Origin: Octopus vulgaris
Taxonomy: Eukaryota
DNA length: 64,000 nt
Direction: 5' to 3'
NCBI GenBank assembly: GCA_951406725.2
Contig: OX597818.1
Location: 127,100,001-127,164,000 of the forward strand
Shown here: one piece after another, positions 9,368-32,812 of the stretch
Numbering within the stretch: the stretch's first letter is position 1
Layout of the letters: each line of letters starts with the position of its first letter
Position numbers and translations under genes: made by a program
Notes under the pieces: model-generated
Database searches by the model: none
Told to the model about the DNA's origin: nothing
The model's input: the letters and a program-made list of their open reading frames with translations, nothing else

Positions 9368-10514
9368 ATGAGACCTTTGTGTTCTAGCCGACTTCTACTC
9401 GACTCTATATCATTTCTCATCACCTTGACGCTGACAACCTTGCCCGTACTGTATCGCAAACGTTACGACAGATCAAAGAACCACTGTCAAAACTCGTTCC
9501 ACTGGCCATTATCCTTGTCTTGTACTTGACTTACATATTTAGGTATGTGCCTACAGGTAGGAATGTGATGAACCAACTGGGGCAGCTGCCTCATTTCATA
9601 TCAGTTTCGAAGGCCAGGCATATGCTTCTATATGCCCTACCTCAGTCAGTGAAAACTACACCAATCCATCCATCAATATGACTAACGCCTCTGAGAAACT
9701 ATTGACAATTATGTTTTATGAAAAGTACATGAATGTTACTTTCTTCTGGTTATTTCTTTGATTAAATTGTCAGGCAAAAAAAAAAAACAATTTTGCATGA
9801 CAATTTTCTCATGACCTTTGTTTTGTAGAGAAACGTCCCCATATTCCAAACTTATTTGGCTTAACACATTAGCAAATTAGCAATGCAGTTTTTGAGGTGT
9901 TGTGATTGTTTTATTGGAATTTTTAGTGGGCATTATTTTCAGCTATCGCCAGACTTTGTTTGCATAAGAAATGTGTTTGCTTGTGTTTTCTGTATATTTC
10001 TCGAAGCGTCAATGTCAGCATTTATGTTTGTTTTCGCTTCTATTTGTTTAATTTTTCTTTTTTTTTTTGACAGTGTTTATCTTTCCACAATTTTGAACAA
10101 ATCTTCTTATGTTTTTTGCTTCGAAGATTTTTATAAGCATGATCGATGCTACTGCCTTTCTAAAAATTGTAAGTGATCAAATGTTTTTAAGTCAAATAAA
10201 TTTTAAACTGAGAGACTTTTTCCTCCATGGCGAGTTAATGGACTAGGTATCTAAAAATACCAGGACTCTTAATTTTTAAATACTCCAGAAAGAGTATTTA
10301 AATGAACTTTGTAGAAATTGAACACCACTGACAGCGAAATGAAGCAATTTCGATAGCAGCAAAATGGCGACAATATCAGTGAGTGAGAGATAAGAGTAGC
10401 ATATGTCGATCACATCCCTTGACTGATTATTTATTTCATTGCACCGGCAAGTATGGAAGGTTTGATTTGAAACTACGAAAGTAAAGGGAAGGAATGTCGG
10501 AAGATTTCAGGTTT

Positions 10515-10838
10515 TATTTACATTATTTATATTTGACGGATATTTGTCCTCATCTTGTTTGTTGTTTCGGCTTATATACCCTCCAGCCCTCATCAGGTGT
10601 CTTGGGGAAATTTCGAACATAAGTTCTCATTCCTAAGGTATTTTTCGATGTTATTATCATGATTATAGTTATTCAGGTCCCTGCCTGGAATCGAACTCGG
10701 AATCTTGGGGGTTAGTAGCCCGCGCTCTGAATCGCTACGTGGCAATTATGGAGTGAAATTTAGGGCTTATAAATCTAATATTTTCCAATCATTCCTTAAT
10801 ACTGGTTCCCATATGCTATTCATATTTGCACTCGGTCT
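10515..10838 (-). mobile_element. Penelope-like 3' end, inverted copy (EN C-terminus remnant, tRNA-like cassette, partial hammerhead)
   Basis: Reverse complement of 11456-11612 plus 11925-12062; B-box GAGTTCGATTCC at 10687-10698; CTGATGA...GAAAC at 10596-10564 with the cleavage arm deleted. Confidence 0.8.
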
Positions 10839-11093
10839 ACTCTTTACTCTTTTACATACTTCAGTCATGAAACTGCGGCCATACTGGAGCACTGCCTTTA
10901 GTCAAACAAATCGACCCCAGGACCTATTCTTTGTAAGCCTAGTACTTATTATGTCGGTCTCTTTTACCGAACCGCTAAGTTACGGGGACGTAAACACACC
11001 AGCATCGGTTGTCAAGCAATGTTGGGGGACAAACACAGACACACAAACATATACACACACAAACATATACACACACATACATACATACATACA

Positions 11094-11172
<79 letters not shown>

Positions 11173-11188
11173 CTGAAAGAAGCTCGTC

Positions 11189-11234
<46 letters not shown>

Positions 11235-11393
11235 GACGAGCTTCTTTCAGTTTTCGTCTACCAAATCCACTCACAAGGCTTTGGTTGGCCCGAAGCTATA
11301 GCAGAAGACACTTGCCCAATGTGCCACGCAATGGGACTAAACCCGGAACCATATGGTTGGTAAACAAGCTACTTACCACACAGCCACTCTTGC
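10838..11393 (-). mobile_element. SINE family A, full length, with internal microsatellite
   Basis: A-box TGGCTGTGTGG, B-box-like GGTTTAGTCCC, TTGGGCAAGTGTCTT block, internal (TA)n/(CATA)n, (AGTAAAAG)-like tail. Confidence 0.92.
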
Positions 11394-11559
11394 ATAGGAA
11401 AATACAAAAATTAAAAGAAGCAGCACATATGCTAGGACACAACAACCTCCTAAGCAGACCGAGTGCAGATATGAATAGCATATGGGAACCGGTATTAAGG
11501 GAGGATAGGAAAATATTAGATTTATAAGCCCTAACATTCACTCCATAATTGCCCACGGG

Positions 11560-11612
11560 CATGAGACGTAGTGGTTAAGAGCGCAGGCTACTAACCCATA
11601 ATTCCGAGCTCG

Positions 11613-11613
<1 letters not shown>
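11560..11613 (+). promoter_or_regulatory. tRNA-like Pol III internal promoter cassette within the Penelope-like end
   Basis: GAGACGTAGTGGTTAAGAGCGCAGGCTACTAACC...CCGAGCTCGAT; the inverted copy (10676-10740) keeps the intact B-box GTTCGATTCC. Confidence 0.6.
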
Positions 11614-11679
<66 letters not shown>

Positions 11680-11680
<1 letters not shown>

Positions 11681-11919
11681 CCTTATTCAGGGACCTTTTG
11701 AGCGGGATGGGCTACTCAACCTGAAGAAAATTCTAACTGGGCCCCACCTGCAAGGTCATGTGCTGTTTATCTTGATATGAGATAACCATGTCGCGCACAT
11801 ATGGTTGTGATGCATGTGCCTGGTGTACCCTTATCAGACGGGTAGTCATGATGGGTATATTGGGCTTCGTATATTTTACCCCAGTGTCACTTTGATGGCA
11901 TGAACTGCTCTCTCACTCA
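11680..11919 (+). mobile_element. Unclassified ~240-bp retroposon fragment inserted in (AAT)n
   Basis: (AAT)n on both sides; absent from the inverted partner at 10515-10838. Confidence 0.55.
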
Positions 11920-11968
11920 ATAATAATAATAACATCGAAAATTACCTTAGGAATGAGAATTTCCCCAA

Positions 11969-12014
11969 GACACCTGATGAAGACTGGAGGATATATCAGC
12001 CGAAACGTTGTGTT
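11969..12014 (+). ncRNA. Minimal type-I hammerhead ribozyme
   Basis: gacac-CTGATGA-A-GACTG(gaggatatat)CAGCC-GAAAC-GTT-gtgtt: stem I gacac/gtgtt, canonical core, loop-less ACGT stem III, predicted cut after 12009. Confidence 0.75.
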
Positions 12015-12752
12015 AACAACAAACAAGATGAGGACAAATATCCGTCAAATATAAATAATGTACATAATACACCATCTCTTAAATATAAAACTGTATTTCA
12101 AGCTTTGTCATCCACCGCGCAATAATGATAATAGCTTCTTAATGCAACATGAAACCCTAGAATGCTAAAGACTAAGAAACGGGAGAAATATTATCGAATA
12201 AATATAACAGAAATTAAATAAAAATAAAAAAATAAATAGGAACAATTATTCAGATATTTCTTAATCAAAGGACTATTGAAATGCGAAAAATTAATTTATC
12301 TAATTTCAAGAGTTGTTCAATATTTGTTTTAACGAACAACATTGTAATGCTGCAATGAGGAAAAGCATAAATTTTTGTAAAAATTCAAATATTTTATATT
12401 CTTTATAATTAAAATAGGTGATTGAATTTGTTATTGTTTGTATTATTATTATTTTTATTTGTCGGTATTTAAAGCCTGAATTTATGACGAGGTTTCGGAT
12501 CATACTGTCAGCACAGCTAAAGTTGGTGGGAATGGCCATAAACATTATAAATGTGTTACTTTCTTCCCAAGTACGTAAGCATCATATTAGTGTAATAAAT
12601 GAATTCTACATTAAAGTTAGTGCAACAAAATATATAAAGCGCAGGTGGTGGAAACTAAGTAAACAGCAATATTCGGAGCTCCAATGCCGCATGTCTTGAT
12701 TTCCTTTCATATCTGTATATAAACACAAACACACACAGATATACATATATGT

Positions 12753-16497: not shown

Positions 16498-17852
16498 TTG
16501 GGGACAGATTCCTTACGATGATCTCCGTGTATGCCCCAATCCTTTAATCTGAAGACGACGTCAAGGCTTCGTTCTACAACCTGCTGAACCGCACCATCCA
16601 GACAGTGCCCGCGCATTGTCTGTGGAATAGCATTCTTGGTCATCACAGCTTTGGGAAATGCAATGCCAATTGCCAGCTCCTCCTGGGCCTTTGCGCCGAG
16701 AACGAACTCGTCATCACAAATTCCCTATTTCGTTTCATTTTTCGACAAAAAACGACCTGGAAACTCCCGCGGCACATCCTCGACTAAGTTCTGACAAGAT
16801 CAAGGGACAGACGAGATGTACGCATCCTCCGCTTCATGTCTGGTTCAGATGACTGCCGGACGGATCACCGCCTTCTTATTTGTCGCCTTGACATCAAGAT
16901 CCGCTGCCCCACAAAGCGAGTCTCAGCAAACTTACCAACGCTTCGTTTGTGCCAAACTCCGGAACTCACAGGCATCCCAGACTTCAGGGAATCCATTCAG
17001 AGACATCTGATGGACCTCCCAGAGCCAACCTCCATTGAAGATCGCTGGCCCAGCCTTCGAGAAGCCATAACCGCTGCCGAGGAGACGATCGACTTTGTCC
17101 GGAAGAAGGACCAAGACTGGTTTGACGAGAATGATGGAACCATCTCCCGTCTGATCGAAGTCAAAATTCGGACGCGTCTAGCCCTCGAGAACTATGTCAC
17201 TGTGGAGAACAAAGGGAAACACCAGTAAGCATCAGCGGCATGCCAGCGAGGAATTCGAGAAGCTCAGAACATCTAGTGGCAGAGGAAAGCACGGGAGATG
17301 CAAAAATATGCGGACCAACGAGGCAGTTTTTTATGCCGCAACCAAGGAGATCTTCGGCCCCACAAGGTCATAAGTACGCGGCCTGAAGAACACAGCTGGC
17401 TCTACGATAATCGGTATCCAGGGAATCCTCGATTGCTGGCAGTCCCATTTCGAGTGTCTACTTAACGATCACTCATGCATTCCTGACGATCTCCTCCTCC
17501 AAAACACCCCACAGCTCCCCATCCGCCATTGGATGTTCCTGCCGCCCTCACGCCATGAGTTCAACAAGGTACTTGCGCGCATGAAGCCGCGGAAAGCTCC
17601 AAGAACAGGCAACATCTCGTTTGAGCTTTTCACGCACGGATGTCCTGAGCTGAGAAGCCATATGATGCTCCTTATACTCAAGAGCTGGGAAAGCAAGACC
17701 CACCCCCACCCCGAAGGACATCTGGAATGCAACTATCATCACCATCTACAAGAAGGGCGACCCAGATGATTGCAACAACTATCGGGGTATCTCATTGTAT
17801 TGCAAGTAAGATCTTCGCCCGTAGCCTACTCAATCGCCTCTTCATCCTCACG
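16498..17852 (+). mobile_element. RTE-clade (BovB-like) LINE fragment, pseudogenised AP endonuclease, linker and RT start
   Basis: ISVYAP; GKCNANCQLLLGLCAENELVITN; CRTDHRLL; KDQDWFDEND; KPRKAP; ATIITIYKKGDPDDCNNYRGISL; KIFARSLLNRL, with stops and frameshifts. Confidence 0.92.
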
Positions 17853-32520: not shown

Positions 32521-32812
32521 GTGGTGACGCAATGGCACAGTGGTCAGGGCAGCGGACTCGCGGTCGTAGGATCGCGGTTTCGATTCCCAAACCGGGCTTT
32601 GTGAGTGTTTATTGATCGAAAGCGCCTAAAGCTCCACGACGCTCCGGCAGGGAGTGGTGGCGATCCCTGCTGTACTCTTTCGCCACAACTTTCTCTCACT
32701 CTTTCTTCTGTTGGCCTACTTGCTTAGCCAGCGGGGTGGAGTCATTTGAAGGCATTGTGACCAGCGATGTGTAGCAACATCTGACAGCCTGGTTGATATA
32801 TATGTCACGGTG
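32521..32812 (+). mobile_element. SINE family B1 (tRNA-Arg-like head, possibly octopus OR type)
   Basis: TGGCACAGTGG A-box, GGAC-TCG-CGGTC anticodon-like loop, GGTTTCGATTCCC B-box; ATATATACAT target duplication. Confidence 0.9.

Follow-up and report, generated by a model that had tools for sequence, protein, structure and literature searches.

Insertions of Penelope-like elements (PLEs) typically include a 5'-truncated copy in inverted orientation and, at one end, a tail of 30-40 bp, as described in the relevant passages of PMC8557442. For the minimal hammerhead of these elements, the sections of PMC4209133 devoted to it list an extra base before stem II, a G10.1-C11.1 pair, palindromic positions 15.2-16.2 and a 5-bp stem I, and report no cleavage as a monomer and weak cleavage as a dimer. 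The excerpts of this literature leave open how PLEs are transcribed, what role the minimal hammerheads play, and which enzymes move short hammerhead-bearing repeats. Here we analyze a 64,000-nucleotide stretch of Octopus vulgaris DNA (GenBank assembly GCA_951406725.2, contig OX597818.1, positions 127,100,001 to 127,164,000 of the forward strand), called the window below and numbered from its first letter. A decayed insertion of a high-copy octopus PLE at 10516-12094 carries a tRNA-like cassette, reminiscent of the A and B boxes of an RNA polymerase III (Pol III) promoter, between the end of an endonuclease frame and a predicted hammerhead. The unusual part of the locus is this cassette, fixed between endonuclease stop and hammerhead; most of the other features are already known for PLEs.

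The family's 3' end

Family data were aligned to positions 10180-10844 at 80% likeness, in place of a genome-wide BLAST search. Two DNA contig sets, X2 (organism B, whole) and X3 (organism A, about 80%), yielded 19682 and 22200 contigs, and two RNA runs, X23 and X24 (organism B, about 6% of each read set), 8010 and 6371 reads; the RNA runs are ordinary RNA-seq rather than small-RNA libraries and bear a species label other than that of the locus source. The flank is covered by single contigs only (depth 45 and 53) and by RNA at depth 0, family depth starts sharply at about 10514, and X3, which contains the junction of left flank and element with one differing letter, may be the sample from which the locus comes. 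Organisms C, D and E have sampled sequence words in common with the region and form no part of this evidence. Before 10741, the loose-end consensus of 54 X2 contigs (agreement 0.81) and of 74 X3 contigs (0.73) passes from the 3' untranslated region (UTR) into an unbroken A box, and five listed contigs (X2-8 and X3-13 to X3-16) run from the endonuclease to the tRNA arm or the B box. The order endonuclease stop, about 30 nt, tRNA-like head, (AAT)n, about 60 nt, hammerhead and tail is the normal end of this family in two species. A preliminary description of the stretch had read these parts as one module, and had named as objections a cassette confined to this locus or an independent short interspersed element (SINE); neither objection holds, as contigs from the endonuclease side enter the A box.

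Taken alone, the two cassettes of the locus are at the chance level. Each arm differs at 6 of the 18 letters of the A/B-box consensus given in a passage of PMC8969392, a result that shuffles reach about 50 times per 64 kb, and at the locus ARAGORN reports 0 tRNA and Rfam none up to an E-value of 10. At the family level, the A box has 0 mismatches, the B box 1, and the spacer measures 32-34, with 17/18 letters matching the consensus; no match with two or fewer mismatches occurred in 100 shuffles of the window, and the analytic chance is about 2e-7 per 330 nt. The tRNA-like reading proposed earlier is thus significant for the family only, since the local arms by themselves do not exceed chance. 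Likewise, boxes at the 30-35-nt spacing of SINEs are found in the family (17/18) and not in the local arms (12/18). A tRNA cloverleaf was not recognised in the cassette by a covariance model, and its T stem pairs at 3 of 5 positions, as in a promoter remnant rather than a tRNA. With the AAT tract counted as its tail, it has the appearance of a SINE head that was captured. A pattern of tRNA hallmarks gave 4 hits against 1.0 per shuffle; it was written post hoc and was not relied on. Separately, at 10608-10622 on the reverse strand 83-94% of reads have family letters at 10619, 10621 and 10622 that spell another B-box-like word; it follows the first by about 70 nt, stands just in front of the hammerhead and is deleted from the right arm.

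The assignment of the peptide before the stop at 11527 to the C-terminus of a PLE endonuclease was confirmed. The frame is closed by TAA at 11525-11527, and the translation of 11393-11524 matches P0001 with 84% identity over 44 aa (tblastn, E 2.6e-20); among named proteins, P0002 of Octopus vulgaris and P0029 of O. sinensis come closest. A search with P0001 returned 27 longer relatives among 53 candidates, with a reverse transcriptase (RT) family on record for 10. RVT_1 scored above the curated cut-off in five of the six long relatives scanned, including full-length P0043 and P0032; the cluster representatives of the scanned relatives are 59-74% identical to P0001. Atlas neighbours of P0001 are clusters named GIY-YIG (score 0.95-0.96; Pfam share 17-30%), P0001 shows a YSIPCSC...YKxET pattern, and a JGI record names P0009 a GIY-YIG endonuclease. 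Pfam, NCBIfam and PDB scans did not name a GIY-YIG domain, the PDB sequence match being a chance one only, and the predicted fold of P0001 was of low confidence (predicted local distance difference test, pLDDT, 52), too poor for a structure search. Relatives of the peptide carry an RT plus a C-terminal GIY-YIG-type domain, and the mismatch to Penelope endonucleases that could have overturned the assignment did not appear. At the locus, where the arms are truncated, the RT is absent from the window, and octopus P0029 reaches only the domain after the RT.

By eye, the linker between RT and endonuclease has no extra zinc-finger motif in P0043, P0032 or alignment A2. According to a passage of PMC8557442, such a motif separates Neptune and Nematis from the Penelope/Poseidon type, and by this criterion the linker points to an endonuclease-bearing (EN+) PLE of the Penelope/Poseidon type. 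The endonuclease is also 59% identical to a cluster from a barnacle (Amphibalanus) and up to 74% identical to other elements, which is high for such distant animals; horizontal transfer is possible.

The hammerhead was recovered at 11969-12014, exactly where it had been proposed. It comprises GACAC, CUGAUGA, an extra A, stem II, GAAA-C-G-U-U and GUGUU, with a 5-pair stem I, an extra base before stem II, G-C as the first pair of stem II, and a palindromic C-G replacing stem III. In 64 kb this is the only match to a descriptor of the minimal hammerhead (0.04 per 64 kb in shuffles), which was composed after inspecting the sequence. Rfam, at gathering and E-value thresholds, reported neither tRNA nor hammerhead in the region, and the hammerhead did not come out of free folding (z -0.40 and 0.92), a result to be expected when stem III is missing from the motif. 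The letters deleted from the left hammerhead are restored in family reads. By its predicted parts, it is the known minimal, dimer-type PLE motif. The inverted pair is unable to form a same-strand dimer; the arrangement itself is not new, since a passage of PMC4209133 reports hammerhead pairs on opposite strands in Schistosoma.

Possible use of the cassette

The letters and spacing of the family boxes suggest that the cassette likely acts as a Pol III promoter. Relative to the endonuclease, depth in X23, X24, X2 and X3 is 2.4, 3.1, 2.2 and 2.3 over the AAT tract and B box, 4.4, 6.3, 4.9 and 6.1 over the hammerhead, and 6.5, 8.4, 6.9 and 5.2 over the tail. The drop across the tRNA head is 2.2-3.2-fold in all four runs, and in the RNA runs depth is flat at 10640-10708 and at 10755-10823, with the step between. 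Such a step fits a class of short copies with a 5' end at or near the tRNA head. Whether many copies begin at the head, as the preliminary description had asked, thus finds partial support: many may do so, and no single such copy was seen.

A possible course of events is as follows. A short tRNA-derived SINE, consisting of head and AAT tail, would have inserted into the 3' UTR of an ancestral family member. Pol III would start at the head and read through the hammerhead and into the tail, where reverse transcription would begin; the monomeric hammerhead is predicted to remain uncut, which would leave the transcript as a ready template, and the element's own PLE enzyme would copy it into the genome. 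The resulting copies would start at the head, keep the promoter and behave as SINEs using Penelope machinery, and promoter-keeping copies of this kind would explain the depth step. Measured from the head, the transcript would reach the cut site after about 200 nt and the unit's end after about 280 nt, and would then continue into flanking DNA. The sense strand has no run of four T (T4) from head to tail (325 and 221 bases); with no such terminator in the unit, the predicted Pol III transcript is about 280 nt or longer unless it is cut at about 200 nt.

We give roughly even chances to the general form of this proposal, that a PLE captured a SINE-type head and likely spawned SINE-like offshoots. 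Its specific form, in which the terminal repeat of an octopus Penelope lineage acquired a Pol III promoter of tRNA origin by capture and a SINE came to be moved by the Penelope enzyme and not by that of a long interspersed element (LINE), is tentative and has the odds somewhat against it.

Several observations weigh against a promoter-headed SINE. No single molecule showed both the A and the B box intact, the former coming from the loose-end consensus and the latter from the left arm. Depth over the hammerhead and tail is about 2-3 times that over the cassette, so most copies are plain 3' fragments without the promoter rather than members of a full-length SINE plateau. The depth step falls on a damaged stretch of the local reference, 10709-10754, and its exact place is therefore not visible; subfamilies with a common 3' module and different upstream sequences, or RT pausing, would mimic such a step, and depth summed over contigs does not measure copy number. 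No loose end corresponding to a copy start at the tRNA head occurs among the 24 of 1049 listed. The lack of T4 carries little weight, as 73% of shuffles lack it too. Pattern and protein scans of metagenome, prokaryote and viral sequences did not reveal a full-length element with the cassette: DNA patterns had no match in metagenome and viral contigs, and protein scans gave two distant loci among 93 metagenome candidates (28% identity), with sequence downstream too short to show hammerhead or cassette, none of 15 candidates in prokaryote genomes and none of 18 in viral contigs. Finally, RNA starts or ends are not piled up in the two standard RNA-seq runs, and mates are equal on both strands. 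The discrete RNA of about 180 nt suggested in the preliminary description is not seen in them, and in the absence of T4 about 280 nt or longer would be expected. RNA-seq of this kind neither shows nor excludes a short Pol III RNA, since thousands of embedded copies can supply reads. RNA depth was not used as evidence of expression; it sums many copies, with equal strands, flank depth 0 and a different species label.

Alternatively, the cassette may be an inert passenger, an old tRNA-derived SINE fragment sitting unused in the 3' UTR of a PLE master copy, with the short copies being ordinary 5'-truncations; we regard this as possible rather than probable. A short SINE is built in the same way, from a head and (AAT)n, and the best non-self matches of the cassette in the window are the heads of SINE-like repeats, with scores (33-40) near the shuffled range (30-38, one shuffle reaching 49). 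Depth declines 5'-ward throughout the unit, the cassette being missing from most copies; against an unused fragment, depth is flat on either side of the head, with the step across it in every run. One X3 contig, among the 15 of 88 joints listed, skips 10652-10741, the entire tRNA-like cassette, and would be a cassette-less copy, possibly representing a cassette-less ancestor or a deletion. The RNA ends that are not piled up suit a passenger, as does the only Penelope promoter tested, which a passage of PMC2377424 describes as internal, LINE-like and without a TATA box; the family sequence argues the other way, both boxes being near perfect while the stems are not. The value of a passenger cassette would be in annotation, where one unit would be split into 'SINE/tRNA' and 'Penelope' pieces.

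It is unlikely that the cassette serves as the promoter of a pseudo-long terminal repeat (pseudo-LTR) of the autonomous element. In a tandem, Pol III would start in the upstream repeat and read into the next copy, and the hammerhead dimer would remove the tRNA-like leader to release an RNA of unit length whose 3' end bears the promoter, as has been suggested for the Schistosoma repeats. The cassette does lie upstream of the hammerhead in the terminal repeat, where PLE promoters lie according to a passage of PMC6765202, and the sense-strand bases noted above are without T4; but a 2.4-kb frame without T runs would be needed, of which the window has 135 nt, and the Penelope promoter described in PMC2377424 is LINE-like. 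A separate SINE inserted locally, or a chance likeness, is very improbable and largely refuted by the family contigs: although each local cassette fits the Pol III consensus only at chance level, with ARAGORN and Rfam empty, the two arms have it at the same place, and many contigs of two species connect it to the endonuclease 3' UTR.

Structure and insertion history of the locus

The features of the locus are listed in Table 1. The most likely interpretation of 10516-12094 is one ordinary decayed PLE insertion with two 5'-truncated inverted arms. The two alignable blocks of the arms each show 90% identity (132/146 and 137/152), and BLAST of the window against itself found no further copies of the arms in the 64 kb. 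Four features of PLE insertions are present: 5' truncation, an inverted truncated copy, a one-sided tail and a candidate target duplication (10/12). For the candidate 12-bp target duplication, an equal score was obtained at 1.95% of 2000 random places (p ~0.02). As to the tail of about 30 nt, family reads extend past the end of the left arm (loose ends at 10514, 1508 and 1385 reads) into sequence that is absent from this arm and is found at the end of the right arm (12070-12094); on the other side, family reads continue past 10838 into the endonuclease frame.

Table 1. Features of the PLE locus and its surroundings (window coordinates)
Feature	Position	Strand	Details
Left candidate target-site duplication	10504-10515	+	12 bp, 10/12 match to 12095-12106
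Left arm: inverted 5'-truncated PLE 3' end without the final ~30-nt tail	10516-10838	-	90% identity to right arm
Left minimal hammerhead remnant	10563-10601	-	core and stem II kept; cleavage triplet and stem I 3' strand lost (11 nt)
Left decayed (AAT)n tract behind tRNA-like head	10645-10672	-	family letters at 10658, 10661, 10667 and 10668 restore AAT
Left tRNA-like cassette	10673-10742	-	B box at 10697-10687 with 1 mismatch; anticodon-like arm; 12-nt deletion breaks A box
Left-arm endonuclease end: last 23 codons and stop	10767-10838	-	tblastn to P0001, 71% over 24 aa, E 1.3e-6
Abundant tRNA-headed SINE-like repeat at arm junction	10839-11393	-	33 further BLAST pieces in window; own A/B boxes at 11386
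Right-arm PLE GIY-YIG endonuclease: C-terminal 44 codons and stop	11393-11527	+	84% to P0001 and P0002
Right tRNA-like cassette	11557-11614	+	A box 11564-11574 (2 mismatches), anticodon-like arm, B box (11607-11614) cut off at 11614
Expanded (AAT)n, right arm	11613-11680	+	tract holding the 238-nt insert
Secondary 238-nt insert within right-arm (AAT)n	11681-11918		no other copy in window
Minimal type I hammerhead, right arm	11969-12014	+	predicted cut after 12009; one stem II mismatch
Element 3' end including ~30-nt tail, right arm only	12015-12094	+	family loose-end consensus beyond 10514 matches 12070-12094
Right candidate target-site duplication	12095-12106	+	pairs with 10504-10515

A comparison based on the 26 differing places listed inside the element gave 11 near-fixed family positions readable in both arms, at 10 of which the right arm has the family letter. 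At the remaining one, 10530, both arms have a letter that is missing from 93-96% of family reads. A second common letter, at 10740, was dropped as evidence, as a deletion junction can account for its sharing. The target duplication at the outer edges, the tail on one arm only and the shared rare letter at 10530 argue for a single insertion, and we infer that both arms stem from one event and one template and decayed afterwards. A later duplication of an arm, as assumed in the preliminary description, ranks below a single insertion, given that one duplication of the target flanks both arms and the tail is on only one of them. The inverted repetition of the module itself is real, the same order being present at 10838-10516 with 90% identity, but both copies are broken. 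Two deletions affect the left arm, one of 11 nt that removed the cleavage triplet with the 3' strand of stem I and one of 12 nt that took the 5' part of the A box; in the right arm, the B box lacks its 3' end and stem II contains a mismatch. To judge from this damage, neither arm is a working module and the locus is dead. The positions proposed for the module hold, except that the right arm reaches about 12094, beyond the 12075 given.

The SINE-like repeat at 10839-11393 sits exactly at the arm junction, without a visible target duplication; it may be a later insertion at the centre of the palindrome or a product of template switch during PLE insertion. Within it, 11169-11254 is a near-perfect fold-back around (TA)n and the source of spurious Rfam microRNA matches, with a local inverted duplication or an assembly artefact as candidate origins. 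The 238-nt insert at 11681-11918 has AAT repeats on both flanks and no clear frame; it may be a microsatellite-targeting element such as Dong/R4. A passage of PMC13282606 lists Dong-R4 as active in O. vulgaris. Elsewhere in the window, four copies of a different SINE-like head, whose A and B boxes are near perfect (1 mismatch in 18), occur at 32533, 41006, 46874 and 62114. Two broken frames lie at 16788-17769, which by eye resemble the remnant of a LINE (RTE-like) open reading frame.

Comparison with known systems

In passages on canonical EN+ PLEs (PMC4209133; PMC8557442), the described elements are like the octopus family in the C-terminal GIY-YIG domain behind the RT (seen here in the relatives) and the linker without a zinc finger, as well as in the minimal type I hammerhead (situated in their pseudo-LTR), 5' truncation, inverted truncated copy and 30-40-bp one-sided tail. 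The octopus family differs in having a tRNA-like A/B-box cassette and (AAT)n between stop and hammerhead, of which these passages make no mention. A literature search, with most subscription papers outside its reach, found neither a tRNA-like promoter in a PLE terminal repeat nor a PLE-driven SINE, and Repbase, Dfam or the repeat library of PMC13282606 may already contain the family; the motif was also absent from the supplement files searched for PMC8557442 (1 file) and PMC10294476 (12 of 33 files). A family in which a coding parent and short copies share one 3' end makes the questions of PLE transcription and hammerhead function testable in one system.

Animal non-LTR retrozymes, as presented in parts of PMC7229834 and 10.64898/2026.07.22.740005, resemble the octopus unit as short hammerhead-bearing repeats proposed to derive from PLE terminal repeats. 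In contrast to the octopus inverted pair with its promoter-like head, they are tandem repeats giving circular RNA, and a passage of PMC7761336 says that they are without promoters. With the tandem criterion stated in 10.64898/2026.07.22.740005, at least two complete hammerheads on one strand, the retrozyme interpretation of the preliminary description finds no counterpart here: no such array was seen, the pair is inverted and its left hammerhead is broken. No go-back joint was present among the 15 of 88 listed, and three low-depth X3 records that rejoin 10564/10566 to 10526 span about 40 nt, not the unit length.

Schistosoma genomes contain SINE-like repeats known as Sm-alpha. In these and the related Sj-alpha repeats ('Sj alpha' is printed in a reference of PMC6765202), a Pol III promoter is followed by a hammerhead on the same strand, according to passages of PMC6765202, just as the promoter-like cassette is in the octopus unit. 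The Schistosoma repeats, however, are non-coding tandems whose hammerheads cut in vitro, whereas the octopus unit is fused to the end of a PLE endonuclease, has a hammerhead of the minimal PLE type, and was not seen in tandem.

The octopus unit is also similar to tRNA-derived SINEs that share a 3' end with a LINE, as described in passages of PMC8969392 and PMC7245038, in having an A/B-box head with normal spacing followed by the 3' end of an autonomous element. The partner in these SINEs is a LINE, and the portions of two mollusc SINE papers at hand never use the word Penelope; the partner of the octopus unit would be a PLE, and here the coding lineage itself bears the head. If the class of short copies is real, SINE partnerships extend from LINEs to PLEs. 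Should the capture of a Pol III promoter and its use with Penelope machinery prove true, the combination of tRNA head, silent monomeric hammerhead and Penelope tail would link autonomous PLEs to Pol III hammerhead repeats of the Schistosoma-alpha kind as a visible intermediate, and one genome would contain both parent and offshoot.

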